From an uncultured Chlamydiae bacterium (lineage in GTDB: Bacteria; Chlamydiota; Chlamydiia; Chlamydiales; JAJFMA01), in contig CAVQMM010000001.1 of the NCBI GenBank assembly GCA_963713615.1, positions 1,568,001 through 1,632,000 of the forward strand: 64,000 nt of DNA, given 5' to 3'. The notes below the pieces were generated by a model. That model was given only the letters and a program-made list of their open reading frames with translations. It was not told the DNA's origin and did no database searches. The translations under genes were made by a program, and so were the position numbers. Below are positions 29,075-55,915 of the stretch, one piece after another; position 1 is the first letter of the stretch, and every line of letters begins with the position of its first letter.

Positions 29075-29083
29075 AACTACCTT

Positions 29084-29752
29084 TCAATAATACCAGTCGC
29101 TTCTAACCTCAACCTGAGGTTGATGCATTGAAACTTGAATAATACTTTGTACTCTATCAGCCATGGCTTGATTTTTTACCACAACCCTCTCTATCGCAGT
29201 CCAGGGACATCTATTATGAACCAGGAATTCCGCCTGTCTTTTTTCTTTGGTCTCTGGGGGCTTATTCCAATATTTCAATGACATGCTGTTCCAATCCACT
29301 TCAGTGCTAAGCCCGTCCAAAGTATCAAATTGCCGTGCATATTTAAGATCTGCATGGAGATCAGTCCAAAGCCAAGCCTGTCCTGTTACCAAAATCGAGT
29401 TTACCGAACTTACGAGATGTAATATAGGCTCCTGCCCACCAGAATAATCATCGTGTCCCTTAAATAATACAAAAAGCATTACTGAACGATTGCAGAAATT
29501 AAATGGCACATAATCGCCTAATACCCCTAATTTCGAGACTGTTACTGCATGCTTTAACCGCCGTTCTTTTATATGGGCATACCCCACATTCGTATGGGGT
29601 GGCTTCCTGCTCAATCGTTCGCTATCGCACCAAAGACCCCCGTCAGCAATTATGCTGGCCAAGTTATCGATATGGGTAATGTGATAAATGGAATGCTGAG
29701 TCAAGGGTAATAGTCCTGTCGTGCCAACACGGTCCCATCGATGCGGCCCCAA
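29084..29752 (-). CDS. darT: DarT toxin (DUF4433 DNA ADP-ribosyltransferase); start uncertain
   Basis: IYHITHIDNL.SI, DYVPFNF, RSVML, KRQAEFLV, WYY; upstream of darG. Confidence 0.9.
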   Translation of the reverse strand: MGPHRWDRVGTTGLLPLTQHSIYHITHIDNLASIIADGGLWCDSERLSRKPPHTNVGYAHIKERRLKHAVTVSKLGVLGDYVPFNFCNRSVMLFVLFKGHDDYSGGQEPILHLVSSVNSILVTGQAWLWTDLHADLKYARQFDTLDGLSTEVDWNSMSLKYWNKPPETKEKRQAEFLVHNRCPWTAIERVVVKNQAMADRVQSIIQVSMHQPQVEVRSDWYY

Positions 29753-33860: not shown

Positions 33861-35905
33861 ATATAGCTAGAACCCGAGGCTTTTCTGTGCGGATGATCGA
33901 AGCGGGCTTTATAATGATTAGCTGCATACTTTGCCAAGGCATGGGGCGCTATTCGGAAGCCATACTTATCTTTTCTTTGTTGACCTTAGTTTGTTTATTT
34001 CAGCCACGCCTCCGAGGGACCAGTTTTTTAGGTTTCATATCTGTTATCGGATTTGCGCTAATGACTGCTCTTGAGGGGAAATTATCAGCATTAATACCCG
34101 CGATCCTAGTCCTTGGTGCGAAACAGATTTTATTACCTGTATCCTCGGGCAATCCATATATTGCTTCCATCTGTGTGATAGGAGCCCTGTTATCGTACTT
34201 TTTGCCGGATCGAGACTGGTTGGCATGCCTGCTGAGTATCGCAGCCTGTACATTACCAACAATTAAAGCCAAAGAAGCAATCGATTCCAACAAAACCTTG
34301 ATTATATCGGGCTGTGCTGGCTGTATTATGGTTGCAGGGCTTCTCGCCTGTCATTTTACAGATAAATCAGTCAAAGTAGGTATTATAGAAGGGGGGCAGT
34401 GGGCCTCAACTCATGACCGTCTAGATTCTCTCAAAACCCTGGACCTGAGACAACTCTACGGCTACACGGAACTTTTAGAACTAGTTGAAGGGGATTCTTT
34501 ACAATTAGATAGCCCGATAGATTCTTATTCCGAACTATGGCTGATTATTCCAACTACCCCATTAACGGCAGAAAAAAAGGAACGGTTGCTAAAATGGGTG
34601 GAACGGGGCGGCCATCTTGTAATAGTAACAGATCATACCGACTTATTCGGTCATGCATCGGTCTTAAATGATTTGCTTGCAGAGACCTCTCTTCACATCG
34701 GCACAGATGCTCTCTTTCCGCAAGATCCTGCCGCGCACTCCCAAGTCACCCTGCACAGGGACATTCCACTGAAAACCGCCAATAGCGAATTTGGCTGGCT
34801 ACTATGGCCTACAATGACTGCTAGATGGATTTCGGAAGAAGTTGACTATTCATCCAAAAATTTCTTTGGTCCACAAGAAGCGACAGATAATGCATCATTT
34901 GGCCGGCATGTGATTAGTGGGGCAAAATCCTATGGAAGAGGCGTTATTACGTTGTTTGGTGATAGCACAGTCTTTGCCAATTTTGCCATTTATCAACCGG
35001 GTATCATCCCTTTTCTTGAACATCTCCGCTCACCGAAACTAATGGCACATGCATATCCCTGGATACTCCTATTTGTAGCGCTCGCTTTGGTTTGTCGACT
35101 CTGCTGGCGTCGAGATTTCCTTCTCGTAATAACCTCGGTTTTGGGGATATTAGTCATTGGAGACCTGCGGAGAGTTTCGACAAATTGGCCGGATTTCATC
35201 GTTTTTGGGGGTGAAAGCGAAAGGGTATCCGAGTGGGCAGAACCGAATACCAGCCTATCCACCGCATTCGCATTTATACCTCTATCCGGAAAGAAACCAC
35301 GCTGGTCAAATGAGCTATTATCCAAAAGCAAGGGTTGCTGGCTTTCGGCCAATGTACCACCACCATCGTCACAATGGATCTGGATTACTCCAGAAGCTGA
35401 AAACGATGAACACGTTGCTCTGCAAATGGACAGCGCTATAACAACCGCACTCGCACCACTGCTCACTGTTATAACCGAAGACAAACCACAAGCTTGGGAT
35501 ACTATCTCCTTGAAAGAGCAACCACTAAAAGTTGGCCATGTTGCAACCAATGATGCCATGGGCCAGTGGTGGTTAGACCATGGGATAAGCAATGCTAAGA
35601 AAGTCAGGATTCAAGGCTGGCTAAACCTTGTTGCAAATGGGAGTCCAAAACAAGGTACATCTTATGCATGGATCCGGGTTGGGGTTATACCACATGAATA
35701 TAAACTCCGACGAGCCGGCGAGGAGTGGCAGACGATTACTCTTCCTGAATTGTTGATAGATGGGACAGAAGGTGAGGTATATCTCGGACGTGGCGTGTCG
35801 GCAAAGGTAGTCAAAATGGAGGGCAATAAATTAGCGCTCCTAGGCACCTCCGCGCTAACCGAAGGTTGGCGCGTGGTAGACTCCTGGATTCTAATGCTGA
35901 ACTGA
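33857..35905 (+). CDS. Polytopic membrane protein with DUF4350/GATase-like domain
   Basis: 682 aa; N-terminal TMs; LLKWVERGGHLVIVTDHT and YGRGVITLFGDSTVFANF; ATGA overlap with the previous gene. Confidence 0.75.
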   Translation: MNIARTRGFSVRMIEAGFIMISCILCQGMGRYSEAILIFSLLTLVCLFQPRLRGTSFLGFISVIGFALMTALEGKLSALIPAILVLGAKQILLPVSSGNPYIASICVIGALLSYFLPDRDWLACLLSIAACTLPTIKAKEAIDSNKTLIISGCAGCIMVAGLLACHFTDKSVKVGIIEGGQWASTHDRLDSLKTLDLRQLYGYTELLELVEGDSLQLDSPIDSYSELWLIIPTTPLTAEKKERLLKWVERGGHLVIVTDHTDLFGHASVLNDLLAETSLHIGTDALFPQDPAAHSQVTLHRDIPLKTANSEFGWLLWPTMTARWISEEVDYSSKNFFGPQEATDNASFGRHVISGAKSYGRGVITLFGDSTVFANFAIYQPGIIPFLEHLRSPKLMAHAYPWILLFVALALVCRLCWRRDFLLVITSVLGILVIGDLRRVSTNWPDFIVFGGESERVSEWAEPNTSLSTAFAFIPLSGKKPRWSNELLSKSKGCWLSANVPPPSSQWIWITPEAENDEHVALQMDSAITTALAPLLTVITEDKPQAWDTISLKEQPLKVGHVATNDAMGQWWLDHGISNAKKVRIQGWLNLVANGSPKQGTSYAWIRVGVIPHEYKLRRAGEEWQTITLPELLIDGTEGEVYLGRGVSAKVVKMEGNKLALLGTSALTEGWRVVDSWILMLN

Positions 35906-36031
35906 AGGATTGATTTTTGGCATACACACCAAGCGTTCTAATCCTGCTGCGATGTCTAAGCGGAGAAATTTGCTGGCCCAAAACTCAAGACCACCAATAA
36001 CTCCAATTTTGGATCTTATACAGGACAATTG

Positions 36032-36964
36032 ATGACTATACCAGACTATCAAGAGTTGATGCTTCCTTTACTCGAACTTGTAGCCAAACGACCCAATCTA
36101 TCAAATCAAGATATGGTCGAAGAACTATGTAATCGCTTCAAGCTTACGGATGAAGAGATACGACGTCTACTCCCCTCTGGTACCCAGCGCGTGATTTTGA
36201 ATCGCATTGGATGGGCGAAGACATATCTTAAGCACGCTGGGCTAGTGAGCTCTCCAAGGAGAGGAACTATAATTCTTACAGAGCAAGGACATGAGACGCT
36301 TGCTTCCCAGCCCACACGCATTGATAGGAAATTTCTTCATCAATTCGACTCCTTCCGAGAGTTCATACGGCGTAGATCGGACGACCAAATCGCCTCGGCA
36401 ACAATGGATTATCGAGAGCCACTAGACATGGAATCTCATGAGACATTAGAAGAGTCGATGGGGCGTATCTATCAACGCTATAAAGATACCATCCTAGCGG
36501 ACCTTATGGAAAAAATCCAATCATGCTCCTTTACTTTCTTCGAGCAGCTAGTAGTCGATTTAATGCTTAAGCTGGGGTATGGGGGTGGCCACAAAGATGC
36601 AGGTTTCGCCTTAGGTAAAACCGGTGATGAAGGAATCGATGGAGTCATTAAAGAAGACCGTCTGGGCTTGGCATTAATCTACCTTCAAGCAAAACGTTGG
36701 AAAAGTTCTATCACGGTGGGACGACCGGAAATTCAAAAATTCGCTGGCGCCCTTTTGGGGAAAGCTGAAAAAGGGGTGTTTATCACAACATCAAGCTTTT
36801 CGGACGAAGCACGCCGGTTCGCGGAATCAACCTCCCATCTCAAGATTATCTTGATTGACGGAAAGTACCTATGTGAGCTGATGTGGGAGCGCGACCTTGG
36901 ATTGGAAGACGCTGGCGGCTATCGTTTCAAACGACTTAAATTGGACTACTTCTCAGAGATCTAA
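36032..36964 (+). CDS. mrr: Mrr restriction endonuclease (type IV)
   Basis: IPDYQELMLPLL, NRIGWAKTYL, FFEQLVVDL, GDEGIDG, IYLQAKRW, GVFITTSSF, LIDG. Confidence 0.95.
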   Translation: MTIPDYQELMLPLLELVAKRPNLSNQDMVEELCNRFKLTDEEIRRLLPSGTQRVILNRIGWAKTYLKHAGLVSSPRRGTIILTEQGHETLASQPTRIDRKFLHQFDSFREFIRRRSDDQIASATMDYREPLDMESHETLEESMGRIYQRYKDTILADLMEKIQSCSFTFFEQLVVDLMLKLGYGGGHKDAGFALGKTGDEGIDGVIKEDRLGLALIYLQAKRWKSSITVGRPEIQKFAGALLGKAEKGVFITTSSFSDEARRFAESTSHLKIILIDGKYLCELMWERDLGLEDAGGYRFKRLKLDYFSEI

Positions 36965-40322: not shown

Positions 40323-41708
40323 TTAAGTTTTGCGATTTTGAAGGCTAGGACCATGAGTTCTACTACGCGCGTCTGAAATAACTGAACTATTCTCTACTTG
40401 CTTTAGAGCTTTAGCCCCAACCGGTAAAGCTTTTTCGATATACAAAGCAGTTCCTGATTTTTCGAGTAAAGACTTAAGACGGGAGAATTCAGAGCACCAA
40501 ATCGTTTCTCTATCTGAATCTTTAGAGGCTTTAGAAGCATCGTTTACCTGCTCATATGTAACAAGCTGCACCTGCATTCTTTCCGCATCTTCAACAGCTC
40601 CAAGCTCAACCCCATAGTCATTTTCGTTGGGTTTTCTAACAACAATACGACCATTTTCCGCCCAAGCTGTTGCCATATTTTCTCTGACTTCATAACCAAG
40701 CTCGGATAATCCCTTTAGAATAGCCTCTCTTCTTGAGGCTCCTGCCATAGCCCTTGTCTCTTCTTTGAGTAAGGCGACACCTTTATCTCTTAGAAGCTTG
40801 CTTGAAGATATATCATTGGAATCAATGGCTTTTGTTAGCAGAACTTCAAGGTCTTTGGCCGGTTTGGATGTCAATCTGTGCAATTCGCTGCGAATCTCCC
40901 GCATTGATGCTATTGCAAGCTCTTTGGCCTTTCGTTCATTTGAGTGAGCTACTAAATCAAGAATGAGAGAATCGGTTAAAAGAGAACGACGACTTGAAGA
41001 CGACTCTTGTGCAATCAAAGTTGCGCGAGCAAGGAATGGTTGAACGCTTTCCCCTTCAATAGCTTCAATCTCAGCTAATAGTCTATCTAATCGTCGATCG
41101 GCTTCTATAGCCTTGATATCCCCTTCTTGACGCATTTTCCAGTCAGTGAGAGTTTGTAGCTTCTCTCCTTCCGATAGCTTTTTAGAGAGTTCTTTTTGTA
41201 GAGGGGTCATGCTTTGCTTTTCAACCGCGCTGAGGGTGTATTCAATCAGTATTCGGCTCAGCGTTGAATTCATAGTAGCTAAATCTGCCTCGTTAGCTGT
41301 TATTGCAGAAGAGGCAATATTCGATAATTCTTCCGGAATTTGACGGTGGCTTGCTTCAAAAGTTCTAATAAGTGTTTCTGCAGAATACTGTAATCGTCTA
41401 CGCAGGCTGCGTTCTAGCTCTGCTTTTGCAATCGTTTCAGTTCGAATACGGCTCATATCGGCTTGTAAAGCTGCTATTTCCGTAGCGCATTGTTTCTGTA
41501 TATCAAGAAACTGTTCACGTTCAAACATCTTAACAATGGAAAGAAACTTGCTTTCTACTGTTTTTTCCTCTTCAGAAGTCAACGCGTCATGGTTAGAAGC
41601 ATATCTACGCCATTGATCGATCGCATCTTGAAGGGCATCGATTCGGCCTTTGCAAATGGACATCACTTCTTGTTTTGTAACAACTCGCACAACCTTAGGA
41701 CCGCTCAT
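40323..41708 (-). CDS. Coiled-coil-rich hypothetical protein
   Basis: 461 aa; MSGPKVVRVVT start; C-terminal RREAILKGLSELGYEV...ETIWC; 6 bp after the helicase stop. Confidence 0.85.
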   Translation of the reverse strand: MSGPKVVRVVTKQEVMSICKGRIDALQDAIDQWRRYASNHDALTSEEEKTVESKFLSIVKMFEREQFLDIQKQCATEIAALQADMSRIRTETIAKAELERSLRRRLQYSAETLIRTFEASHRQIPEELSNIASSAITANEADLATMNSTLSRILIEYTLSAVEKQSMTPLQKELSKKLSEGEKLQTLTDWKMRQEGDIKAIEADRRLDRLLAEIEAIEGESVQPFLARATLIAQESSSSRRSLLTDSLILDLVAHSNERKAKELAIASMREIRSELHRLTSKPAKDLEVLLTKAIDSNDISSSKLLRDKGVALLKEETRAMAGASRREAILKGLSELGYEVRENMATAWAENGRIVVRKPNENDYGVELGAVEDAERMQVQLVTYEQVNDASKASKDSDRETIWCSEFSRLKSLLEKSGTALYIEKALPVGAKALKQVENSSVISDARSRTHGPSLQNRKT

Positions 41709-41714: not shown

Positions 41715-44700
41715 TTATCCTCCCGAACCAAATTGAATGGGCTTGTCTGCGAACCTAATTCCTAAGGCTTCTTCGAGCACCTGCTTTAAACGTCCCATTT
41801 CTTCTTTTCTTCGATGATACCATGCATAACTAGTCACTCTATAGACATGCGGGATCTCCATGCGCAGGACTTTGGGACGCCAAACTTCACGGGCTCTTGC
41901 TGTTTCTAAAATAGGGTGGCAGTGGGCATCACATTCGATGCCAATTCCAAATCGCTTTTTCTCTGGATCTTCTATTACAAAATCCAATCCAAAAGCATCG
42001 CTTTCTTTGATTGCAGATGTTTTTAGTCCAAGACTTTTGATGAAGGTAGCGACTGATCGAGTAAAACCATCTTTGTCAAAATTTGAGTTTCCCTGGGAGA
42101 CTGGATTTTCAGAAGTGATATTGTCGAGAGACTTTCTGGCTGCTCCCAAAAATCCTTCACTGAGTTTAGAGGCATAGTCGAAGTAAGCTTGAAGGTAATC
42201 TCTAGAGTTTTTAGGGCTCTGGCTCTTGGATAAAGCATCTGAGATCTCGTTGATGGGAAGGGAAGTGATCAGAATGATTTTTTCCCTCGCTCGCGTAATA
42301 GCTACATTCAAACGACGCTCTCCTCCGCCTTGGCTAAGAAGACCAAATTGTCTTCGGAATATCCCTTGCTCATCTCTTCCGAAAGTCGAGCTAAAAATGA
42401 TTACATCCCTTTCGTCTCCTTGAACGTTTTCAATGTTTTTCACAAAGAAGCTCATATCTTCCCTGTCTTGCTGACGTTCTCGTTCTTGGCTTAGAACTTG
42501 CCGGAAGGGGGCATCCTGATCGGCTCGTTCGGCTAGAACATCTTCTATCAGGTCGGCTTGCTTAGCGTTGAAGGTCACGATGCCAATGCTGGGTTTATCT
42601 GGTAAAGACCAATATTCAGCTAGTAGGTCGACGACCCTCTCGGCCTCTTCCCTATTGGTTTGGTTTGCGTAGACTCCGTCGACTCGTATTAGCTCAATAG
42701 GCCGAATATTTTGAATCACATTTTCTGGGTGTCTGACAGGAACGCTTAATCTATTGCCATAGAAAGCTGCGTTTGAAAAAGCAATCAGCTCGCGGTATTT
42801 TGAGCGATAGTGGATTTGTAGCATGGATCTTGGTAAAACGGTTTTCCCAAGAGTTAGCAAATCTGTACAATCTTTAATTTCTCTTTTGTTCCAAGTGTCT
42901 TCAAGTGCTTCCCTTTCCGCATCACTGATTATTATGTCTAGGTCTTCATCAATGGAAGTTGGCTCCTCGTCATCTTCGATTCGTTTCATGAACACGCTTG
43001 TAGGGGGCATTTGTTTCTCATCTCCGCTAATGACAGTTCGTTTAGCCCGATAGAGAGTTGGAAGAGCATTTTCTATAGGGATTTGACTTGCCTCGTCGAA
43101 AATAATCACATCAAACATTCCAGCCCTTAAAGGAAGCAGTTGGCTTGCGGTATCTGGATTCATTAGCCAGACTGGTCGGAGATGTCCTAGCCCCATATCC
43201 CATCCGCGCTCAATGACTTGCCGAAGACGACGAGCTCTTGGACCTCTTAGACGAGTGATATCTTCCCAATCTTCAGGACCCCTGATCTTCTCTATATCTA
43301 TATTGTAAGCCAAGAACTTCTGGTTCAATTTTCTCATGTGAGTAGTTGATTCGTCGAGAGTTTGGATTTTCCGTGAGAGCTCTTTTTGAGAAAGACGCAA
43401 GATTGGGAAGTTCTGCTCGATTCGGTCTTTCCAGGCAAGTCGGGCTTCACGAGCAATAATTCTTCGAATCACTTCTTCAAGTTCTTCTGCAGGATATTCC
43501 CTCAATTCTTTATCTTTTTCCCGGAGAACGGCCAAAATCTTTAAGACCTCCAGAGAAAGATTTGGTGCTTCCAGGCGGAATTCTTGATAGGCAGAGAGGG
43601 ATGGGAGTGCTTCAACTAAGAGGTGGAGATCATGAAAACTAGACTGATTATTATGAATATTTGCTTGGCAAAGTTCAAACAACTTTTCAGAGAAAAATGG
43701 AACTAGCCGGTCTAAAGCCTTGATGCTCTGTAGTCTAGATTGATGGCGCGCAAAGGCTTTTTCATACCGAGAGATAAGATCTTGGTACGCGCGTACACCC
43801 ATTTGGGTTATCGGCTCGACTTCTTCTTGGCGAGGGCAGGCATGAAGGGCATGGATACCTTCTTGTGCTAAGCGTAGCTCCTCTATCATACGATCGGCCT
43901 TCAAACGCAACTCCTTCAAAAATAAGGGAGTGGACGTATGCCTGTCGGCGTAAAGCAGATTAGAAAATTCTAAAAGCTTCTCTCGGATCGGTCTTTGTTG
44001 CAGTTCGAGTTTAGCAGCATCCTGAAGTTGTAAAATATGCTGCATCCTTGTGCAATTCATCTCGCGTAAGGGATGAAGACAAAGCTCTTGGTGGGTTAGG
44101 CGCAAAGACAGTAATTGCTGGATTCGCTTACAATTTATATTGTACGAAGAATTAATACGATATTTTTGGTAAGCCGAGAAGGATGGTAGCGCTTGATATA
44201 ATTGTTGAAGCTCGTCAAAATTCAATCTATTATTTCGAATATTAGCGTAACATCGCTCAAATAGTGCTTCGGAGAAAAATGCAGAAAGGCTCTTTAAAAT
44301 ATCGATACTCTGACTTCTAGCTTGCTGGCGCTCAAAGGCTTTTTGGTATCGAAAGATCAGATCGTGATATGCGAGTTTACCTGTTTTGGCTATTGGCTCG
44401 ATTTCTTCTTGGCGAGGGCAGGCATGAAGGGCTTGCACACCTCTTTGTGCTAGGTGCAGATCCTCTATCATACGATCAGCCATCAAGCGCAACTCCTTCA
44501 AAAATAAGGGAGTGGACGTATGCCTGTCGGCGTAAAGCAGATTAGAAAATTCTAAAAGCTTCTCTCGGATCGGTCTTTGTTGCAGTTCGAGTTTAGCAGC
44601 ATCCTGAAGTTGTAAAATATGCTGCATCCTTGTGCAATTCATCTCGCGTAAGGGATGAAGACAAAGCTCTTGGTGGGTTAGGCGCAAAGACAGTAATTGC

Positions 44701-47700
44701 TGGATTCGCTTGCAATTTATATTGTACGAAGAATTAATACGATATTTTTGGTAAGCCGAGAAGGATGGTAGCGCTTGATATAATTGTTGAAGCTCGTCAA
44801 AATTCAATCTATTATTTCGAATATTAGCGTAACATCGCTCAAATAGTGCTTCGGAGAAAAATGCAGAAAGGCTCTTTAAAATATCGATACTCTGACTTCT
44901 AGCTTGCTGGCGCTCAAAGGCTTTTTGGTATCGAAAGATCAGATCGTGATATGCGAGTTTACCTGTTTTGGCTATTGGCTCGATTTCTTCTTGGCGAGGG
45001 CAGGCATGAAGGGCTTGCACACCTCTTTGTGCTAGGTGCAGATCCTCTATCATACGATCAGCCATCAAGCGCAACTCTTTTAAAAATAAAAATGTCGACA
45101 TTTGTTTTTCATGATAAAGCTGGCTGTAAAGTTCTAAAATTGTCTCACGGATTGGTCGTTGCTCCAACTCCAGTTTGACTGCATTTTGAAGTTGTACAAT
45201 CCTTTCCTGAGTTGGTTTTTCGTTACAATTTCTCAAGAGGCTTTGAATCCGTCTGTAGTTTACATACCGTAAAGGATTGAGGCGACCAATTAAGGAAACT
45301 GATGAAGTAGCACTCTTAGCCCATGAGAGCCATTTTTCTACGGTCAAAATAGGCAATTGAATCAATTGGGCAGATAGCTGAGAGTCATGATCTTTTAAAT
45401 CTAAATCGCTTAATGACGCTTTGAGTAATTCAAGCTGCCGAATTAGATCACGACCTTTTGGCTCTCCATCTGCAGGAAATAGGTGAAACCAAGATGAAAT
45501 ATTTTTCCAGTCTACTTTACTAAAGAGAGGCTCATGTGATGTGATCCACTCTTGATGAGGAGATGGGTCATCTATTTCGAAAGATGTGGTCGAAGGCGTG
45601 ATAGACTCTTCTCGTCTTTTTTCTTTATCAATGAATGCAAAAAGAAGGCTGGCGAATTCATTGACTAAAGGAGAGTCAGGGGAGAAGACTTTGAGTTTTT
45701 CTAATGGATTTCTTTCAAAAAAAGAGGATTCAAGCCAGATTCCAACCATCGAAGATCGGATTTTTTCAATTGCCTTGATTTGTTTTTGATGGCCTAAGTA
45801 GGCAACCGATACGATGCCTGTCTTAGCCCATGAGAGCCATTTTTCTACGGTCAAAATAGGCAATTGAATCAATTGGGCAGATAGCTGAGAGTCATGATCT
45901 TTTAAATCTAAATCGCTTAATGACGCTTTGAGTAATTCAAGCTGCTGAATTAGATCACGACCTTTTGGCTCTCCATCTGCAGGAAATAGGTGAAACCAAG
46001 ATGAAATATTTTTCCAGTCTACTTTACTAAAGAGAGGCTCATGTGATGTGATCCACTCTTGATGAGGAGATGGGTCATCTATTTCGAAAGATGTGGTCGA
46101 AGGCGTGATAGACTCTTCTCGTCTTTTTTCTTTATCAATGAATGCAAAAAGAAGGCTGGCGAATTCATTGACTAAAGGAGAGTCAGGGGAGAAGACTTTG
46201 AGTTTTTCTAATGGATTTCTTTCAAAAAAAGAGGATTCAAGCCAGATTCCAACCATCGAAGATCGGATTTTTTCAATTGCCTTGATTTGTTTTTGATGGC
46301 CTAAGTAGGCAACCGATACGATGCCTGTCTTAGCCCATGAGAGCCATTTTTCTACGGTCAAAATAGGCAATTGAATCAATTGGGCAGATAGCTGAGAGTC
46401 ATGATCTTTTAAATCTAAACCGCTTAATGACGCTTTGAGTAATTCAAGCTGCTGAATTAGATCACGACCTTTTGGCTCTCCATCTGCAGGAAATAGGTGA
46501 AACCAAGATGAAATATTTTTCCAGTCTACTTTATTAAAGAGAGACTCATATGATTTGATCCATTTTTGATGAGGAGATGGATCTTCTACATCGAAAGATG
46601 CCATTGACTGTCGGATGGATTCATCTCGCCATTTTTCTTTATCAATGAATGCAAAAAGAGAACTGACAAATTCATTGACTAATGCAGAATCAGGAGAGAA
46701 CAGTTTGAGCTTTTCTAATGGATTTCCTTCAAAAGAGGACTGCAACCAAGTTCTGGCGATCGGAGCACAGGTTTCTTCAATTACTGTAAGCCGTTTTTGA
46801 TCGAGGTCTTTTAATACTCTTCGTAGAACAGGCACATCAATCAATTTGATTTCTTGATCTTCTAGATCGATTAATTGACCTAAGAGGATTCGATAGCTTA
46901 GTCCCGTTGTTTGGTCAGTTGTGTGAATCGCTGCATGGTGCTTATCGATTTCCCTTTCTAAGTTTTCGATTTTTTCAGCCAGCTCTTCGCGTTTAAGTCC
47001 TACATTTTCCGCACTGTAGGCGCTGATAGCTTGTACAATCCCTTCGATTTGAGATCTCAGATTTTCTAGGACAGAGGCACGATCTTTATTTACGTGCGTT
47101 ATATAGAAATAACGATTCTTAAGCCCTTCTGCATCGAGTCTTTTTGCCAGGACTTCTAGAGCTGCAGACTTTTGGCAGACAACGAGTACTGTCTGATTGC
47201 GACCGATGCAGTCCGCAATGATATTTACAATCGTTTGGCTTTTCCCCGTTCCTGGAGGCCCTTCAATGAGCAGGCCTGGAGTTTGTCGTGCGCGAAAAAC
47301 GGCTTTCTCTTGAGAAGGGTCACTCTCCATTGTGAAGAAACGATCTTTTTCAGGAATCGAAGGAAGGGCGGGGGAAGCGAAAGGCTCTCTGTTCACGCGG
47401 AGTGCCATTTCTAGTCCCGTTCCATTTACGGACTTTTTCCTCATTTGGCGCAAATCTTCTCCTATGGCCTGACCCATAAATTCAGCATGGAAGAGAACGG
47501 CAGAGCAAACCACTTGCCTACTTCCTGCCTTAACTGTGTAGTCATTATCTGGCAGAGCACATAGAGACCTTTCTCTTGGATCTGCTAGGGATCCGAAAGC
47601 ATCGATCACGTCTCCGATATGAATCGTAGACCTTCCTAATAGCTCTTTAGCAGTTTCTGCACATCGTTTCGCTTCTTCAGTACCAATCAGTCCCATAAGA

Positions 47701-50123
47701 GCTGGATTCACTCTCACTTCTTCTCGATCACGATCAAAAAGAATGCAGACGCGATCTCTATTCTCAATGTTAATTTTGATAGGCCAAAGCAAAATGGGCG
47801 CAATTCTTGGTTTTTTTTCTGTTGCCTCCGCTCGGCTGTCTTTCATGACAAGGAATGGAAATCCAACATAGAGGCTATCGATACCTGTATCCTTCCTATA
47901 TGTTTTTGCATGGCTTACTAGATGGCGCAGCCTTCGATCGAGATCAGAATCATCTTCAAAAGCTATCCTATCGATTCCTATTGGAGTCTCTATCCTACTC
48001 ATTAAGTGTTCGAGAATGGATGAGGCTTTTGTTTTTTTCCCTGCAATACGTGCAAGGTCAACACGCGAATTAGATTTTCCGATCAGCATTCTAACAAGTG
48101 GGCCTCGTTGTGCTAGACTTGCAGTACGCTTTTCGAAAAACTCCAGTATCGTAGAAACATACTGCTGTCGAGGCAGCTCCTGCCAGGATTCTTTGGAAAC
48201 GGAGAGGAGAGCCAATGCTCGGGGAAGTGAAATCCTTCTCTCATTTCTGAAGGCATCGGCCCACTCATCCACACGTGCAATTCCACATCGTGAATAGTTT
48301 GCAGTTCGCTCTTCGATTTCTCGGTAAAGATCCCTTCTTGAAATGTCAAACCATTGTTGTGCAGCTGACCCATCGTATGAAGGAAGGCCAGCCTGTGAAG
48401 CAACGGCATTTGCCTGATTTAAGATTTGTTCGGCGGGTTGATACTGCTGAAGACTGGCTCCGAGGAGGATTATCAATTCTTCATCGGTAATTTTTTGTCT
48501 ATCCACCAACGAATTTATACCACTGTGGTCAGATCCTGGATACAGCCGACGATGAATGGCCCATAGGCGTTCCAAATTTGGTCGGGAGGAAGTAAGTGCT
48601 AATAGTCTAAAACTTTCTTCATTGAGTTCGATTTCGAAAATTTTAGCTCTTGCACGTGCTCTTTCGATTCGATCATGCAAATCGCAGAGGTGAAGCTCGC
48701 GGTTCATTTGACGGAGCTGACCAATGAGGGGACCTGTGATGATGTCGTACCCTTGAATCGGATTTTGCAGCAGCCACGAACATGTAAGGATTTCCCCTTG
48801 ATTGATTAATGGAAGGCTAGGATTCATCCACATCAGAGCTAAAGCGTGCCTAAAATCTTCAGAAACGGAATCTATAGAGGTCGCAAGTCGAATACCGGCT
48901 ATAATCTTAGGGTCTGCTTTGCGATCTTCTAACCAAGTGACTACTACCCCTCTCATTAAAAGATCTTTAGCTTGCTCCCAATTTGCCGCCTCGGCAGCGG
49001 CTAGGGAGTACGCTTTGGGACAAACATAAGAGTGCTCTTTGAATTCTAAAGCTGGGCCATTGTGAGCTTCTTCAGAATTACCATCTGAAGGCGCCTCTAT
49101 AGACTCTCCAGAAAGCCAACTTTGTACTTGTGTCCATTGCCAACGTTGATCGGGATCCCGCGCCAATAATCCACGAAGTAATAAGTTAAGAGCAGGATCA
49201 ATGCCTTTTGGGAGGGAAACTCCTCTTGTTAGTACGTGAATACGAAAGGCTTTTTCATTGATCCCATCAAAACACTGGCCATTTGTAATTAGGTGAAGAA
49301 TAATCATTCCTAAGCTCCACCAATCAGAAGCTACGCTGATTCCTCCTGCAATCACTTCTGGGGCTGTATAATGGGCTGAAATAGGTTGTATGACGGTATC
49401 AAGATCAAAGGTGGAGAGGCGGCTAAATTGAAATCCAGTAAGTAGCAAGCTCAATGGGTCTCGATGACTAATTAAAATATTTTCTGGTCGAAGATTCCCA
49501 TGACGCAATCCATATTCTGTAAGAGTGCGTAAGATTCTCCCTATAGATTTAACGATTTGCCGAGTCATTTCCAGATCGGTGCACGTAGATGTCAGATCCA
49601 ATAAATTTGACTGACCAATAAAACCTGTAACCTCATATCGACGCCCCTGCCATTCACCGTGAGCTAGAAGCTCTGGTACATAGTCTTTTGGCAACCGCTT
49701 GAGGACTTCATAGATTGTTGAATCTGGGTGAGCATCAGGAAGGTATAAAGTAAGAACGGCTTGATGTCCATATCGCTCAACAATAAAAGTTTCGAAAGCT
49801 TCGCTACGACTCTCAAGTTGATCAATAGCTGCCCATCCATCAATGACCGTTTCATTTAATTGAGGATTTTCTTCTACGCATTCTCCTGCTACTGCTTCCG
49901 CTGCTCCGCATTCAAAACACATCTCGTCTCCCTCATTGAGAGGGTGACCGTTATGACAGCGTCGTATGGTAGGAGGGGTGATGGGTGTTTCAGGAATGAA
50001 ATCAATCTGGCCAGGAGGTCTTAGAGGTTCTAGGGTTAAGTCCCATCCACAATTTCCGCAGAGGACTTCTTCTTGAGGACGTTCTTGGCTACATCCCAGA
50101 CACTTACGAACACGGATTGTCAT
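41715..50123 (-). CDS. Zn-ribbon / Ser-Thr kinase / DUF4011-like / SF1 (UPF1-like) helicase / Vsr-like nuclease fusion, about 2800 aa
   Basis: CxxC ribbons; RHGNLRPENILI, YTAPE, SDWWSLG; DTGIDSLYVGFP, APILLWP; EGPPGTGKSQT, FDEASQ, SGDEKQMPP, HYRS, NVQGDERD, RRLNVAITRAR; IGIECD. AGGAGG RBS favours start 50123 (track: 50150). Confidence 0.9.
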   Translation of the reverse strand: MTIRVRKCLGCSQERPQEEVLCGNCGWDLTLEPLRPPGQIDFIPETPITPPTIRRCHNGHPLNEGDEMCFECGAAEAVAGECVEENPQLNETVIDGWAAIDQLESRSEAFETFIVERYGHQAVLTLYLPDAHPDSTIYEVLKRLPKDYVPELLAHGEWQGRRYEVTGFIGQSNLLDLTSTCTDLEMTRQIVKSIGRILRTLTEYGLRHGNLRPENILISHRDPLSLLLTGFQFSRLSTFDLDTVIQPISAHYTAPEVIAGGISVASDWWSLGMIILHLITNGQCFDGINEKAFRIHVLTRGVSLPKGIDPALNLLLRGLLARDPDQRWQWTQVQSWLSGESIEAPSDGNSEEAHNGPALEFKEHSYVCPKAYSLAAAEAANWEQAKDLLMRGVVVTWLEDRKADPKIIAGIRLATSIDSVSEDFRHALALMWMNPSLPLINQGEILTCSWLLQNPIQGYDIITGPLIGQLRQMNRELHLCDLHDRIERARARAKIFEIELNEESFRLLALTSSRPNLERLWAIHRRLYPGSDHSGINSLVDRQKITDEELIILLGASLQQYQPAEQILNQANAVASQAGLPSYDGSAAQQWFDISRRDLYREIEERTANYSRCGIARVDEWADAFRNERRISLPRALALLSVSKESWQELPRQQYVSTILEFFEKRTASLAQRGPLVRMLIGKSNSRVDLARIAGKKTKASSILEHLMSRIETPIGIDRIAFEDDSDLDRRLRHLVSHAKTYRKDTGIDSLYVGFPFLVMKDSRAEATEKKPRIAPILLWPIKINIENRDRVCILFDRDREEVRVNPALMGLIGTEEAKRCAETAKELLGRSTIHIGDVIDAFGSLADPRERSLCALPDNDYTVKAGSRQVVCSAVLFHAEFMGQAIGEDLRQMRKKSVNGTGLEMALRVNREPFASPALPSIPEKDRFFTMESDPSQEKAVFRARQTPGLLIEGPPGTGKSQTIVNIIADCIGRNQTVLVVCQKSAALEVLAKRLDAEGLKNRYFYITHVNKDRASVLENLRSQIEGIVQAISAYSAENVGLKREELAEKIENLEREIDKHHAAIHTTDQTTGLSYRILLGQLIDLEDQEIKLIDVPVLRRVLKDLDQKRLTVIEETCAPIARTWLQSSFEGNPLEKLKLFSPDSALVNEFVSSLFAFIDKEKWRDESIRQSMASFDVEDPSPHQKWIKSYESLFNKVDWKNISSWFHLFPADGEPKGRDLIQQLELLKASLSGLDLKDHDSQLSAQLIQLPILTVEKWLSWAKTGIVSVAYLGHQKQIKAIEKIRSSMVGIWLESSFFERNPLEKLKVFSPDSPLVNEFASLLFAFIDKEKRREESITPSTTSFEIDDPSPHQEWITSHEPLFSKVDWKNISSWFHLFPADGEPKGRDLIQQLELLKASLSDLDLKDHDSQLSAQLIQLPILTVEKWLSWAKTGIVSVAYLGHQKQIKAIEKIRSSMVGIWLESSFFERNPLEKLKVFSPDSPLVNEFASLLFAFIDKEKRREESITPSTTSFEIDDPSPHQEWITSHEPLFSKVDWKNISSWFHLFPADGEPKGRDLIRQLELLKASLSDLDLKDHDSQLSAQLIQLPILTVEKWLSWAKSATSSVSLIGRLNPLRYVNYRRIQSLLRNCNEKPTQERIVQLQNAVKLELEQRPIRETILELYSQLYHEKQMSTFLFLKELRLMADRMIEDLHLAQRGVQALHACPRQEEIEPIAKTGKLAYHDLIFRYQKAFERQQARSQSIDILKSLSAFFSEALFERCYANIRNNRLNFDELQQLYQALPSFSAYQKYRINSSYNINCKRIQQLLSLRLTHQELCLHPLREMNCTRMQHILQLQDAAKLELQQRPIREKLLEFSNLLYADRHTSTPLFLKELRLMADRMIEDLHLAQRGVQALHACPRQEEIEPIAKTGKLAYHDLIFRYQKAFERQQARSQSIDILKSLSAFFSEALFERCYANIRNNRLNFDELQQLYQALPSFSAYQKYRINSSYNINCKRIQQLLSLRLTHQELCLHPLREMNCTRMQHILQLQDAAKLELQQRPIREKLLEFSNLLYADRHTSTPLFLKELRLKADRMIEELRLAQEGIHALHACPRQEEVEPITQMGVRAYQDLISRYEKAFARHQSRLQSIKALDRLVPFFSEKLFELCQANIHNNQSSFHDLHLLVEALPSLSAYQEFRLEAPNLSLEVLKILAVLREKDKELREYPAEELEEVIRRIIAREARLAWKDRIEQNFPILRLSQKELSRKIQTLDESTTHMRKLNQKFLAYNIDIEKIRGPEDWEDITRLRGPRARRLRQVIERGWDMGLGHLRPVWLMNPDTASQLLPLRAGMFDVIIFDEASQIPIENALPTLYRAKRTVISGDEKQMPPTSVFMKRIEDDEEPTSIDEDLDIIISDAEREALEDTWNKREIKDCTDLLTLGKTVLPRSMLQIHYRSKYRELIAFSNAAFYGNRLSVPVRHPENVIQNIRPIELIRVDGVYANQTNREEAERVVDLLAEYWSLPDKPSIGIVTFNAKQADLIEDVLAERADQDAPFRQVLSQERERQQDREDMSFFVKNIENVQGDERDVIIFSSTFGRDEQGIFRRQFGLLSQGGGERRLNVAITRAREKIILITSLPINEISDALSKSQSPKNSRDYLQAYFDYASKLSEGFLGAARKSLDNITSENPVSQGNSNFDKDGFTRSVATFIKSLGLKTSAIKESDAFGLDFVIEDPEKKRFGIGIECDAHCHPILETARAREVWRPKVLRMEIPHVYRVTSYAWYHRRKEEMGRLKQVLEEALGIRFADKPIQFGSGG
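43530..45090. repeat. Intragenic tandem repeat B, 582-bp period, three units
   Basis: 43906-44495 equals 44488-45077 with 1 mismatch seen; the third unit is more diverged. Confidence 0.9.
45314..46745. repeat. Intragenic tandem repeat A, 507-bp period, three units
   Basis: TCTTAGCCCATGAGAGC recurs at 45314, 45821, 46328; near-identical except the N-terminal unit. Confidence 0.9.
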
Positions 50124-50775
50124 AAGGCCCCTCCTTTTTTGAGCGCTCATCTTGTGTAGTTATGGCAACGTGACCTTCCTTAGCTAAGATCGTTTTTAGG
50201 CGTCGCATGTCATCACGCCTAGGAATCCCAGCGAGCCATATAGCTCCTTCTTCTTCAAACATAATATCAAAGGTCTTGTCCGATGGCTTAAGAGTGCGTT
50301 CAAATTGACGGAATCGCGTTTCTCCGAGAGGGGTAAGGCAATGAAGACGTTGATTATCACTGCCACGCAGGGCAAGTGTTTGGGAATCACTTTCTTCGTA
50401 AGGGTCTGAAATAAGAGCGTCTATTGTTCCTTTGCACTGATTAACTAAAGGAGCAATCTTCTCAAAAGGATGTCCACTATAAACCAGAATATCCTTAGTG
50501 ATTTTAGAGCGAATCTGAGCAAGGAGATTAATCAACGCTTCAGATTGATCAAAAGGTTCCCCACCAGAAATAGTAATTCCATCCGCCTCGTCCAGCCAAG
50601 GATCGATAACGGCCATGATTTCATTAATTGAAACACCACCCCTTCCAGTTCCCCACGTATCGGCTGATACACATCCCTTGCAACGAATAGAACATCCTTG
50701 AAACCAGATGCCAATACGGCGACCTGGTCCCAGGGTCGTTACTGGGAAGTGGATTCTAGAAAGGTAAAGGATCAT
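50104..50775 (-). CDS. Radical SAM / 4Fe-4S protein, NrdG-activase-like
   Basis: LGPGRRIGIWFQGCSIRCKGC (CxxxCxxC), ITISGGEPFDQ, VYSG, LRGSDNQR. Confidence 0.9.
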   Translation of the reverse strand: MILYLSRIHFPVTTLGPGRRIGIWFQGCSIRCKGCVSADTWGTGRGGVSINEIMAVIDPWLDEADGITISGGEPFDQSEALINLLAQIRSKITKDILVYSGHPFEKIAPLVNQCKGTIDALISDPYEESDSQTLALRGSDNQRLHCLTPLGETRFRQFERTLKPSDKTFDIMFEEEGAIWLAGIPRRDDMRRLKTILAKEGHVAITTQDERSKKEGPYDNPCS

Positions 50776-52637
50776 AATATCGCACTGGGAAAATCGCTGA
50801 TAAGATTTAGCTTGGTTACTATACCGATGTCAACAGTACTAATGCAAAGCTGTCTGCCAGATTCGATATTGTCATCAAAGAGAGCTCTAGAAAGAGGATT
50901 GACTAGATGAGTTTCGATTTTATTGCGGATCCCTCGTCCGCCATTAGATAGGTCTTTTAAGCAAAGTTCTCTAAGGGTTTGCAAGGCGGAAGAGGTTGCA
51001 ATAACCTCGATCCCTCGAGATCCTTTTAAATCTGCGAGCACGTTATTTATCATGCTCTTGAAAATTTGTTCGGCTATATCATCACGAATGAAGTCAAATA
51101 CGATAACATTGTCTCCTATTCGGTTGAGAATCTCAGGCCGGTTGAGGGTGAGCTTGAAGTGCTTCTCAATCTCTTCTCGAATACACTTTTGAATAGTTTC
51201 AAAGGAATCTGTCGGTGCAACCGTTGCTTTTCTATCCCCAGTGATATCTGTTTGATAGATACCAAGATTGGAAGTAAAAACAATAAAAGCTTCTGTAAAA
51301 TAGACCCTCTCCCCCCTGCCGGATGTCAAAACCCCATCATCGAGAATTTGAAGAAACTTATCGAGAATCCTGGGATGGGCTTTTTCAATTTCATCAAATA
51401 AAACGACACTAAAGGGTTTTTCTCGAATCGCGTTTGTCAGCTCTCCTCCTATGTCGTAACCGATGTAGCCTGGAGGGGCTCCAATTAAGCGTTGATCCGA
51501 ATGTTCAGCACTAAATTCGGACATATCAAAACGAATATAGGCGCTTTCATCACCAAATAGTAGGCTTGTAATGGATTTGGCTAGTTCTGTCTTTCCCACG
51601 CCTGTAGGTCCCGCTAAAAAGGCTACTCCTCTCGGACGCCCGCCTCGACGTGGAGCCCCTACTCCTGTAACCGCCCGCTTGATGATATCAAGCATATGGA
51701 CAACCGCATGGTCTTGTCCCTTGACTCGTTGCATAATAAAATTTTCGCCATCATGGATCTTGCTTCGATCGATTTTTTGCCAAGGATCCTCAGAAACACC
51801 TACCTTGTAACGGCGAACAGCTTCGCTTATCTTGGCGTATCCTAGCTTTTCCTCTCGACAGAGTTGAGCTATTAGCATGAGATCAACTAAAAGCAACCCT
51901 TCAGTATTATCCACAAAGTCTTGAAGCGCGACATCTTTTAGCTGGGCGGATGCGTCCTTTGCTCCCTCAAGGGACTGAATAAGAGAATTCGCCAGAATTC
52001 GACGCATCTGATGGTCTGGATTTGGAATAGAAATATGACGAACCTTTGAATTGTCAACCGTAAGCCAAGCAGGCATATCCCCTTCTTTTTCAGCTACCCA
52101 TAAGATCGTATTAAAGAATGGTTTTGATGGAGACCCATGAGCACGAACTCTAGCTTCGTGCGATCGAATCAAAGCTCTTGTAAAAAGACGATGTTCATTG
52201 TCACTAAGATTATTTTGGTTAATGATTAAGCGCGATGCAAAGTCGATGATTAGAGCGATTGGTTCCGCTTTCCACGTAATCACTTTTTCTAAAACTTCTT
52301 CGAAAAGATCTAGACCCGCAGGCGCACAACCATTTGCGGGTTGAAGCCCTAGTTGCTTCATCAAGGTTTCTGCATCTTTGTAACCTTGTTGACCATTTAA
52401 TGAACCAATACTTTTGAAGCCATTGACGAAGTCATAGCATAATACATGAGTGTAGCCGCACGTTCGCAATTCTTCGTTTAAGAAAGAACTGAGTGGTCGA
52501 ACAACAGCACCGCTTGCTTTGTCTTCGATCTGAAGGTCTCGTACATTGCCTGAAAGCACAAATTGACTTTTCAAAGGCAAAAAACGTATGAGATCGCGCA
52601 ACCACTTTGATTTTTTCACTTCTAAGTCTTTGATCAT
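50772..52637 (-). CDS. ClpB-like AAA+ ATPase (single intact NBD2-type module)
   Basis: VKGQDHAV, AGPTGVGKTE, FDMSEF, LIGAPPGYIGY, VLFDEIEKAHP, RPEILNRI, GGRGI. Confidence 0.9.
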   Translation of the reverse strand: MIKDLEVKKSKWLRDLIRFLPLKSQFVLSGNVRDLQIEDKASGAVVRPLSSFLNEELRTCGYTHVLCYDFVNGFKSIGSLNGQQGYKDAETLMKQLGLQPANGCAPAGLDLFEEVLEKVITWKAEPIALIIDFASRLIINQNNLSDNEHRLFTRALIRSHEARVRAHGSPSKPFFNTILWVAEKEGDMPAWLTVDNSKVRHISIPNPDHQMRRILANSLIQSLEGAKDASAQLKDVALQDFVDNTEGLLLVDLMLIAQLCREEKLGYAKISEAVRRYKVGVSEDPWQKIDRSKIHDGENFIMQRVKGQDHAVVHMLDIIKRAVTGVGAPRRGGRPRGVAFLAGPTGVGKTELAKSITSLLFGDESAYIRFDMSEFSAEHSDQRLIGAPPGYIGYDIGGELTNAIREKPFSVVLFDEIEKAHPRILDKFLQILDDGVLTSGRGERVYFTEAFIVFTSNLGIYQTDITGDRKATVAPTDSFETIQKCIREEIEKHFKLTLNRPEILNRIGDNVIVFDFIRDDIAEQIFKSMINNVLADLKGSRGIEVIATSSALQTLRELCLKDLSNGGRGIRNKIETHLVNPLSRALFDDNIESGRQLCISTVDIGIVTKLNLISDFPSAIL

Positions 52638-52800
52638 TTAAAATTTCCAAAGGTAACGGTTATTTTGGTTCTCTCTCACCTTTAGTTCTTCAAAGCTCGA
52701 TCTAGAACTTTTTTTTCAGTCATAAGCGTCTAACGTTCTGGTTGTTGACCGGAAATTGTAATGCTGACGAGCATTTATCTGCAACTAAAGAGACTATTTT

Positions 52801-54294
52801 GGGTGCAATCCAAACTTGTACGCAGAGCAATTCTTGTGTAAGATTGTTTACACAATGTTGCGGCTGACCCAGCATGAAACCCTATCCAAATCAATAATAT
52901 GCGAATTTAGATGAAGACTATTCCACCATCACACGACCTTTCTGAGGATGAACGTTATATTTTACATGTGCTTAGAGAAAATCCAAGTCTGTTACAGCCG
53001 CTCCTGGAGATGGTTGATGTCGTTGGTAAGAATTTTGAAGCGCTTAAGACGGGCGATGAAGCAGAAGAAGCTACCATAGCTGCTATTCGTAAGTCTGGGC
53101 AGGCCATTCTTCAAAATTGGGCGGATCATCGTGTTAAGCAGGTAGAATCTCAATACGAGCCTGAGAAGGGCATCCGTCCCCACGGAAAAAAAAAGTCGAA
53201 TGGCAGACAACACTAGGACGCATCACTGTTGTTCAAAGGTGTTTTCTACAAAAGAAGCATCGTGGTCGACCTTCACATCGTTTAAGGCCTTTTGAGGACT
53301 TTTCAGGGATAAAACACCAAGATTGGTCAAAGCGGTGTCAACGCTTGATAACTGATCTAGGATCCGAGGAATCCTTTTCGAGGGCCGCGAAACAGATGAA
53401 GGAGCACCATGGATTGGAAATCAGTCCCACTACGATATCAAATATCACGCTTAAACATGCCAAGAGGGCGCAGCTGATGATGAAAAAGCCTCCTATCGGG
53501 AAAAAGGCAGACAATCCAACAACCCCACTTGTGGTTGAAATGGATGGTGGAATGGTGCCCCTAGTTGAAACAGCTGGTTCTGGAGATAGACGGAAAAACA
53601 GAAGAGTATCCTGGGCAGAGCTTAGAGTGGGGGTTATTCAGCGCTTAGGGGAAGCAGACTGGAAATACACGTGTTCCTTTAATAGCCCTGATGATTTGGG
53701 AAATAGAATGCTAACATTATTAGAACGGCAATTTGGGTGGGAAGGACAGAGCCAATTACATGGTATAGGGGATGGAGCAAAATGGATAACTGAACAGATG
53801 GAAAGGGTAGCAGGAAGCCGAGGGAACTACCTAATTGATCTGTATCATTTAAGTGAGTATCTAGCGGGAGCAGCAACGGCCTGGACTGAGGATATTAAAA
53901 AGGAGACTCGAGCGCTAAAGACCCGCTTAAAAAAAGGACAGATCGTGAATGTGAAGCGAAAGCTTCGAAAGTACTCCAAAGTTCACCCTGAGCATGAGGG
54001 CCTGCAAAAGTGTATACAATACATAACTAATAGACCTGGGCAGTTTAAGTATGATGAAGCGATTAGAAAAGGTTTGCCAATAGGTTCGGGGAAAATAGAA
54101 AGCACGCATCGCCATGTGATTCAGAAGCGGTTGAAAAAGCCCGGAGCATGGTGGAGACGGGATCATGCGGATCAAATGGCAAACCTTAGAACTCTTCGAG
54201 CTAACGATGAATGGGAAAGGCTTTGGCAAGATGAGGTAGTCTGTGAGCTCGATTGCCTAGCCGCCTAAGGTGAGTACAAATTTGAATTACACCC
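52801..54294 (+). mobile_element. ISKra4-like (UPF0236) IS element
   Basis: 21-bp imperfect IR GGGTG(C/T)AAT(C/T)CAAA(C/T)TTGTAC; no TSD. Confidence 0.85.
52911..54268 (+). CDS. ISKra4-like transposase, likely expressed by -1 frameshift at A9G (53186-53195)
   Basis: ORFA ends GKKKSNGRQH; the -1 frame continues KKVEWQTTLG... into VEMDGGM, GDGAKWI, DLYH, IGSGKIESTHRHVIQKRLK. Confidence 0.8.
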
Positions 54295-55893
54295 GACATT
54301 ATCCCCTATTCGGTTGAGAATTTCAGGTCGGTTGAGCGTTAGCTTGAAGTGCCTTTCAATCTCTTCTCGAATACGCTTTTGAATACTTTCAAAGGAGTCT
54401 ATCGGTGCAACCGTTGCTTTTCTCTCCCCAGTGATATCTGTTTGATAGATACCAAGATTGGAGGTAAAGACGATAAAAGCTTCTGTAAAATAAACCCTCT
54501 CCCCCCTGCCGGATGTCAACACCCCATCATCGAGAATTTGAAGAAACTTATCGAGAATCCTGGGATGGGCCTTTTCAATTTCATCAAATAGAACGACACT
54601 AAAGGGTTTTTCTCGAATCGCGTTTGTCAACTCTCCTCCCATGTCGTAACCGATGTAGCCTGGAGGGGCTCCAATCAAGCGTTGATCCGAATGTTCAGCA
54701 CTAAATTCGGACATATCAAAACGAATATAGGCGCTTTCATCTCCAAATAGGAGGCTGGTAATGGATTTGGCTAGTTCTGTCTTTCCCACGCCTGTTGGCC
54801 CCGCTAAAAAGGCTACTCCTCTAGGACGTCCGCCTCGACGCGGAGCCCCTACTCCTGTAACTGCTCGCTTAATGATATCAAGCATATGGGCAACCGCATG
54901 GTCTTGTCCCTTGACTCGTTCCATAATAAAGTTCTCGCCATCATGGATCCTGCGTCGATCGATTTTTTGCCAAGGATCCTCAGAAACACCTACCTTGTAA
55001 CGACGAACCGCTTCGCCTATCTTGGCGTATCCTAGCTTCTCCTCTCGACACAGTTGAGCGATTAGCATGAGATCAACTAAAAGCAGACCTTCAGTATTAT
55101 CTACAAAGCTTTGAAGCGCGACATCTTTTAGCTGGGCCGATGCTTCCTTTGCCCCCTCAAGGGACTGAATAAGAGAACTCGCAAGAATTCGACGCATCTG
55201 ATGGTCTGGATTTGGAATAGAAATATGACGGACCTTTGAATTGTCAGCCGTTAGCCAAGCAGGCATATCCCCTTCTTTTTCGACTACCCATAAAGCAGGC
55301 ATATCCCCTTCTTTTTCGACTACCCATAAGATCGTATTAAAGAATGGTTTTGATGGAGATCCATATGCACGAACCCGAACTTCGTGCGATCGAATCAAAG
55401 CTCTTGTAAAAAGACGATGTTCGTTATCATTGAGTACATTTTGATGAACGATCAACCGAGATGCAAAGTCGATGATTAGAGCGATTGGCTCTCCTTTCCA
55501 ATTAATCACCTTTTCTAAAACTTCTTCGAAAAGATCTAGACCTGCCGGCGCACAACCATTTGCTGGTTGAAGCCCTAACTGCTTCATTATATTCTCTGCA
55601 GCTTCATAACCTTGTTGGCCATTTACTGGATCAATAACTTTAAATCCATTAACGAAGTCATAGCATAAGACTTGAGAGTAGCCATACGTTCGTAATTCTC
55701 CGTTTAGACAAGAAGTAAGTGGTCGAACAACGGCACCACTTGCCTTGTCTTCGATCTGAAGGTCTCGTACATTGCCTGAAAAAACAAATTGGCTTTTCAG
55801 GGGTAAAAAACGAATGAGATCCCGCAACCACTTTGATTTTTTGACTTCCGAAGCTATTACCAAATTACCATCGAAATTAATACTCAAGATCAT
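54295..55893 (-). pseudogene. Second ClpB-like AAA+ ATPase paralog, 3'-truncated by the IS
   Basis: High identity to 50772-52637 up to RIGDNV; 36-bp tandem duplication at 55257-55328. Confidence 0.9.
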
Positions 55894-55915
55894 CCTCCAA
55901 ACAAACTAGTCGAAT

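Follow-up and report, generated by a model that had tools for sequence, protein, structure and literature searches.

We present evidence that a giant helicase of an uncultured Chlamydiae bacterium probably carries a helical arm whose two strands, encoded in separate parts of the gene, change length in step. The gene lies in a stretch of 64,000 nucleotides (GenBank assembly GCA_963713615.1, contig CAVQMM010000001.1, positions 1,568,001 to 1,632,000 of the forward strand), hereafter the window, from whose first letter all positions are counted. Between its Walker A motif and motif II the helicase holds three units of one kind (A), a short tip and three units of another kind (B). With a probability of roughly 0.8, we propose that A and B make up the outgoing and the returning half of a single antiparallel helical arm, in which extra copies likely nest while the tip stays at the far end. 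This interpretation is well supported by independent natural events, namely length changes among homologs, and by structure prediction.

Matched repeat blocks in the helicase insert

The features of the gene, with the arm units named by the roles that we propose for them, are as follows:

41715..50150, minus strand: giant helicase open reading frame (ORF), 8436 nt, 2811 aa, uninterrupted reading frame
47238..47261, minus strand: helicase motif I (Walker A, GPPGTGKS), beginning at 47261
46293..46801, minus strand: A1, outermost outbound unit, a 157-aa core with a 12-aa tip-like linker
45786..46292, minus strand: A2, middle outbound unit, 1 nt from A3 across their common core
45315..45785, minus strand: A3, innermost outbound unit
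45201..45314, minus strand: putative arm tip, a hairpin turn of 38 aa with an S-L-x-x-R-L-N-P-x-R type motif that expanded and deleted homologs retain
44619..45200, minus strand: B1, innermost return unit, a 152-aa core with a 42-aa linker holding tip-like relics
44037..44618, minus strand: B2, middle return unit, whose linker is the second copy, 1 synonymous change away from the first
43581..44036, minus strand: B3, outermost return unit, diverged, with 74% nucleotide identity to B2 over 333 nt
43083..43097, minus strand: helicase motif II (DEASQ), beginning at 43097

Along the protein the order of the insert is thus A1, A2, A3, the tip, B1, B2 and B3. The A block (45314-46801) has a period of 507 nt, or 169 aa, in 2.9 copies, and the B block (43580-45200) one of 582 nt, or 194 aa, in 2.8 copies; each period is the sum of a core and a junction linker (157 plus 12 aa in A, 152 plus 42 aa in B). 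The units are mosaics, the final 204 nt of the three A units being 99% identical. Self-comparison with blastn returns the repeats at E values from 0 to 2e-71, far above chance, and on this evidence the A and B repeats are real.

Two rounds of expansion can be distinguished, each of similar age on the A and B sides, although the recent one rests on small numbers: over 713 nt at lag 507 the A side has 2 mismatches, and over 590 nt at lag 582 the B side has 1. In the older round the nucleotide identity has fallen to about 81% (A) and 74% (B), with synonymous divergence (dS) of 0.58 and 0.65, respectively. The ratio of nonsynonymous to synonymous divergence (dN/dS; 0.35 in A, 0.37 in B) indicates that the older copies are under purifying selection. 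A preliminary description, made from the sequence alone, had placed three A units and then three B units between Walker A and DEASQ and had seen in each block one near-identical and one diverged duplication, with ages that match between the blocks; the periods, mismatch counts and dS values given here agree with it on each of these counts.

The linkers at the old junctions resemble the tip, the 12-aa A linker its first part and the 42-aa B linker its second part, as would be expected if a complete A-tip-B module had been inserted once into the tip. For the recent round, the sequence is compatible both with a single unequal double exchange and with two duplications. More generally, matched copy numbers could reflect separate duplications that were co-selected, or events in which one nested insertion or exchange changed both sides, and the old junctions of the window point to one tip insertion.

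Paired length changes and the predicted fold

Two word-based searches together with a full profile search yielded 268 homologs, or 269 proteins with that of the window. Both helicase anchors were present in 204 of these, the other 65, mostly fragments, being without Walker A or motif II; 203 also had a locatable tip and form the scored set, one protein (P0165) having no tip-spanning match. As the search profile held both halves, one-sided expansions would also have ranked high; at the same time, the profile search favors multi-copy proteins, so that the proportion of variants does not represent their frequency in the population.

In the scored set, 169 proteins show a baseline of one A and one B unit (standard deviation about 3 aa on each side), 32 are longer on both sides, one is shorter on both, and one (P0260, -27/-82) is borderline, whereas none is longer on one side alone. 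The changes on the two sides correlate with r = 0.98 over the 34 variants, kin among these not being independent. About nine pairs of A/B unit sizes occur among the lineages, including 169/194, 59/75, 89/168, 150/149, about 160/152, 147/178, 251/273 and 136/171, with two or four extra units for 59/75 and one, two or four for 147/178. A profile containing both halves matched most of the top multi-stretch proteins in 3, 5, 7 or 9 stretches, as nesting predicts. Three plus three modules are found in ten proteins besides that of the window, and long forms persist in deep clades, up to the five modules of P0125. This protein (3387 aa) and P0126 (3420 aa) have the longest arms; in the latter, two 251/273-aa units are added onto an older 147/182-aa pair, and this layout implies that new nested units can span earlier junctions.

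On a tree of the non-arm sequence we count at least 11 Fitch changes between baseline and variant forms; this tree (FastTree, 195 tips, midpoint root) has some weak nodes and leaves out 8 of the 203 proteins for their short scaffold, the variants P0031 and P0131 among them. In 27 homologs other than the window's protein, copy identity on the A side follows that on the B side with r = 0.80, kin again not being independent and 4 of the 32 expanded proteins having been passed over. The ends of the inner modules, in profile positions, fall at 3/356, about 40/348 and about 120/262, i.e. in antiparallel register. The same register is seen in a natural deletion: P0018 has lost positions of about 68-137 together with 225-300, the tip between them being intact.

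Structure prediction of the A3-tip-B1 module yields an all-helical fold with a predicted local distance difference test (pLDDT) of 93 and a predicted template modeling score (pTM) of 0.84. Compact four-helix matches span model residues from about 41 to 349, which in the model places the beginning of A and the end of B in a common bundle. Given as separate chains, A and B are predicted to bind, with a complex score of 0.75 against 0.00 for the best control; the mark applied to this score, which 116 of 157 solved complexes as well as 2 of 215 mismatched pairs attain, is only roughly valid with an alignment of one's own. The complex has about 290 predicted contacts, with runs agreeing in at least 93% and a partner pLDDT of at least 85, and its contact pairs (54-302, 83-265, 121-249) are antiparallel. 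Beside unrelated proteins the pLDDT falls to 38-42 for A and to 40 for B. A coupling analysis lends weak further support: 20 of the 32 top A-B pairs lie on an antidiagonal band, with an expected share of 0.29; the band was picked after viewing the list, and the analysis is noisy, the effective number of sequences (Neff) being 220 for 356 columns.

Foldseek returned no match for the arm at E 0.001, and the best solved-structure match (VIA; Z 8.6, root-mean-square deviation 3.8, 106 residues) is to generic four-helix bundles and does not cover the module as a whole. We found no sequence or fold relative of the arm in solved structures, NCBIfam or Atlas, which is no proof of a new fold.

Several observations weigh against the arm as proposed. 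The rank correlation in the coupling analysis is not significant (-0.20, p 0.27, top 70). Side lengths are unequal, with B/A ratios of 0.95-1.4 in most variants, 1.9 in P0026 and P0028, 2.2 in P0010 and 3.0 in P0260. A mirror-order test of copy similarity, made with crude unit slicing, favored the nested order in just 11 of 21 multi-copy proteins. Finally, a model of all six units paired A3 with B1 and A1 with B2 and placed A2 and B3 with low confidence (pTM 0.42). In the alignment behind this last model, the outermost B of the homologs was placed on B2 and helicase residues on B3, which confounds it as a test of the order A1-B3, A2-B2, A3-B1; as a prediction, it shows that A and B units lying far apart can rebuild the bundle. 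We infer strict nesting from the connectivity of the chain, in which B2 follows directly on B1 and so starts next to the end of A2.

The preliminary description had also cast the A units as the outbound and the B units as the return strand of an antiparallel helical arm growing only in pairs, with equal numbers of A and B expected in homologs. The predicted co-fold and the antiparallel breakpoints favor the former proposal, and the pairing has held, as no protein of the 203 has one side clearly changed alone. The independent folding of A and B that it named as contrary evidence is not what is predicted, given the low pLDDT of either half beside unrelated proteins.

Host protein, operon and related systems

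The 2811-aa protein combines in a single chain matches to a zinc ribbon (below cut-off), a kinase-like domain, DUF4011 (PF13195), a UPF1-like superfamily 1 (SF1) helicase (PF13086/PF13087) and a Vsr-like nuclease domain, MTES_1575 (PF18741); DUF3320 is absent from its Pfam matches. The helicase is UPF1-like in having motifs I, II, III, V and VI intact and both AAA_11 and AAA_12 domains. Active serine/threonine kinases use a catalytic HRD aspartate and a DFG aspartate. The kinase-like domain (49122-49649, minus strand) has HGNLRPEN and TGFQ in their place; in homologs the DFG position is mostly TGF, GGF or SGF, and the HRD aspartate is also missing in the window's clade. Because both aspartates are missing, the domain is likely an inactive pseudokinase. 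A whole-protein search of 60 relatives gave just weak kinase-domain matches, in 38 of them. By the arm profile, the arm is present in 5 of 301 genomes of the phylum, including that of the window; the 4 matches in the 300 others comprise three with one module and one that is broken.

The helicase is the third gene of a four-gene operon, the other members of which are:

50772..52637, minus strand: ClpB-D2-like AAA+ ATPase, operon gene 1, present at 63 of 65 loci
50104..50775, minus strand: NrdG-like radical-SAM 4Fe-4S protein, operon gene 2, present at 63 of 65 loci
40323..41708, minus strand: 461-aa likely coiled-coil protein of no named family, operon gene 4, present at 58 of 65 loci

These counts refer to the 65 best-matching loci (L021-L085) of 131 fetched. 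The 461-aa protein matches unnamed clusters only in Atlas, and in two variant loci, L021 and L023, it keeps its length when the arm changes.

A DarT/DarG pair (28022-29752, minus strand) and an Mrr-family restriction nuclease (36029-36964, plus strand), both within 15 kb, give the region the look of a defense island. Together with the family matches, this context suggests a defense role for the operon; the wider context is modest, as a PADLOC search at 1e-20, with no control, matched 4 of 51 downstream ORFs in 24 loci, 4 of the loci having a match within about 4.5 kb downstream.

The best family match of the window protein is to the anti-phage protein ProA (NCBIfam NF058533), which we take to belong to the Prometheus system, at 504 bits, the single-module P0001 scoring 534 bits in one stretch. 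The two share DUF4011, an SF1 helicase with a long insert and a Vsr-like end, but the score (460-534 among homologs) lies far below the cut-off of 1500, the window protein matches nothing of the ProA profile beyond about position 1710 of 1903, and it differs in its N-terminal zinc ribbon and kinase-like domain and in its four-gene operon. In the portion accessible, PMC12629846 only names Prometheus. The candidate PDC-S37 (E 5.7e-149) and Hhe (NF042953, PADLOC PDLC02194; E 2.8e-89) have the same DUF4011-helicase-Vsr-like layout in one chain; for Hhe the score is 300 bits (319-324 in single-module homologs) against a cut-off of 2000. Hhe is listed as a single-gene system in the part of 10.1101/2024.10.26.620412 available, and the window helicase is unlike it in having operon partners in 58-63 of 65 loci.

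According to the accessible sections of PMC11090510, the CnuH proteins of CoCoNuT systems are UPF1-like SF1 helicases with a large helical insertion after Walker A, Type III-B members combine a fused Vsr-like nuclease with a separately encoded coiled-coil protein, and the systems are defined by McrB and McrC homologs; these sections describe no nested repeats in the CnuH insert. The window protein has a helicase and post-Walker A helical insertion of this kind and a Vsr-like fusion as in the Type III-B described there, and a separate, likely coiled-coil protein is encoded beside it. Its operon does not belong to that type, as its partners are the ClpB-D2-like, NrdG-like and unnamed proteins, with neither McrB nor McrC; matches of the operon to PDC-M37B/DolB are weak and confined to the AAA core. 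The window protein thus belongs to none of the ProA, Hhe and CnuH groups. Within the text available, PMC10250203 reports a large DUF4011 gene beside a radical-SAM gene, flanking cDHS1 in every Pseudomonas aeruginosa isolate searched, as a marker only, and assigns these genes no function; by this description the pair likely represents the operon family of the window, and the operon is present in the P. paraeruginosa locus L032. In the literature covered, which left out supplements and most subscription papers, we found no paper on nested matched A/B expansion in DUF4011-type helicases or on the function of the operon.

The coupling in length of the outbound and return strands recalls SMC and Rad50. 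In their antiparallel coiled-coil arms, too, both strands must change length together. Unlike their long two-helix coil, the arm of the window is predicted to consist of stacked short helical bundles and to grow by whole nested modules.

Next to the operon, a second ClpB-like gene (54265-55893, minus strand) is 90% identical in protein and 89% in nucleotides to that at 50772-52637 and breaks off at the position matching residue 511, giving way to a UPF0236 transposase-like gene (53345-54268, plus strand). This gene may be what is left of a second copy of the operon; no helicase copy to match it was found in 52500-56000 or in the rest of the genome. Downstream of the operon in L021 (13523-16677), opposite-strand ORFs of 213 and 618 aa are near the sizes of the radical-SAM and ClpB-like genes and are possibly a second, facing copy of the operon. 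Just before the Mrr gene of the window lie two overlapping ORFs on the plus strand (32337-33860, 507 aa; 33857-35905, 682 aa); searches of Pfam, PADLOC and NCBIfam gave no match for the former and DUF4350 alone for the latter. Elsewhere, a 2.9-kb element, likely an insertion sequence, occurs three times (9851-12792, 16412-19353 and 24771-27715; 99.97% and 95% identical), the third copy being inverted and its long ORF seemingly in two pieces. ISAs1 is present in two identical copies of 1022 nt (2135-3156 and 19353-20374), and a P4-family primase-like ORF (20393-21553, plus strand) amid transposases suggests an integrated mobile element.

Alternatives, mechanism and implications

It is improbable that the third A and third B units are an assembly artefact and that the true gene has two of each. 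The recent copies are just 1-2 nt apart, and none of the public-run contigs examined spans a whole A or B block. Yet the window sits in a 3.9-Mb contig without N, and contigs from four public runs match it without differences across every copy-specific letter, i.e. 46420 and 44130 (X5), 45913 with 45946 (X1), 45439 (X2) and 44712 (X3); the combination unique to A2, 45913 with 45946, is carried by a single 502-nt contig. A second comparison with public reads gave six short contigs, none of them decisive; run X7 came from a relative only. As the public contigs are short-read, of depth 2-4 and with several copy-specific sites near their ends, they support three copies but fall short of proof. An error would, moreover, need one in-frame A and one in-frame B to have been added, and ten other proteins show the same three plus three arrangement. 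Hardly credible is the idea that A and B are independently folding tandem domains with equal counts by coincidence, for which we found no favoring observation, in view of matched changes in 33 of the 34 variants across many unit sizes, the predicted A-B contacts and the low confidence of either half beside unrelated proteins.

A mutational process could also generate equal numbers by itself, with one recombination copying the whole inner hairpin into its own tip, no selection for pairing and longer arms that are neutral. The two old junctions of the window at about the same tip position, the agreement of ages on the A and B sides and the adjacent 89%-identical operon fragment, a possible donor, all speak for such events. 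This process is compatible with the arm and accounts for the gains, but as a full explanation we judge it unlikely: simple one-sided tandem duplications should arise more easily and yet are absent from the 203 proteins, the older copies show purifying selection, and P0018 lost two separate stretches that flank an intact tip and lie opposite each other in the predicted register. That deletions affect two sites at once and one-sided changes are lacking suggests that selection for pairing also acts. The hypothesis that the arm serves as a molecular ruler or a tunable sensor, with a length that sets the distance to a membrane, partner or nucleic-acid site and that lineages adjust adaptively, is likewise doubtful. 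The tightly held baseline, the endurance of long forms in deep clades and the constant retention of the tip would suit it; conversely, 169 of the 203 proteins have one and the same length, unit sizes vary by lineage, leaving no common step, and the 461-aa partner aligns over about 450 aa both in L021, with an arm 143 aa shorter, and in L023, with one 268 aa longer. Longer arms would then be tolerated variants, with tuning a weaker, hypothetical option.

We favor the paired growth of a single arm projecting from a likely defense-type helicase-nuclease. Extra copies would nest inside one another, so that the arm lengthens like a telescope with its tip remaining distal; as an unpaired half would misfold, only paired changes would survive. 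Many of the gains likely arose when a distal segment of the arm, delimited on A by the edge of a sub-bundle and on B by the edge opposite it, was copied into the tip. Since the apex always retains the tip motif, the arm likely positions the tip. More tentatively, the arm might act as a spacer holding a basic, aromatic tip off the motor; the tip might contact either a trigger or a partner (the ClpB-like unfoldase or the 461-aa protein), and the helicase might then feed nucleic acid to the Vsr-like nuclease. That all this amounts to an undescribed, widespread four-gene immune machine, with a telescoping arm that copies its own distal hairpin into its tip and whose length, from one to five modules, is a ruler for the reach of sensing or cutting, is an extension that we consider rather unlikely in its entirety.

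Repeat proteins for the most part expand by adding copies next to existing ones. In this gene, two regions lying far apart have changed together, repeatedly and with differing unit sizes, likely because their products fold as a single unit. The homologs offer a natural series of arms, shortened or with 1, 2, 3 or 5 modules, for testing the origins of nested architectures and any function of arm length, and they mark the points at which the large helical inserts found in DUF4011 helicases can be shortened or extended. Moreover, the finding draws attention to a conserved four-gene operon that is without a functional study in the literature covered.

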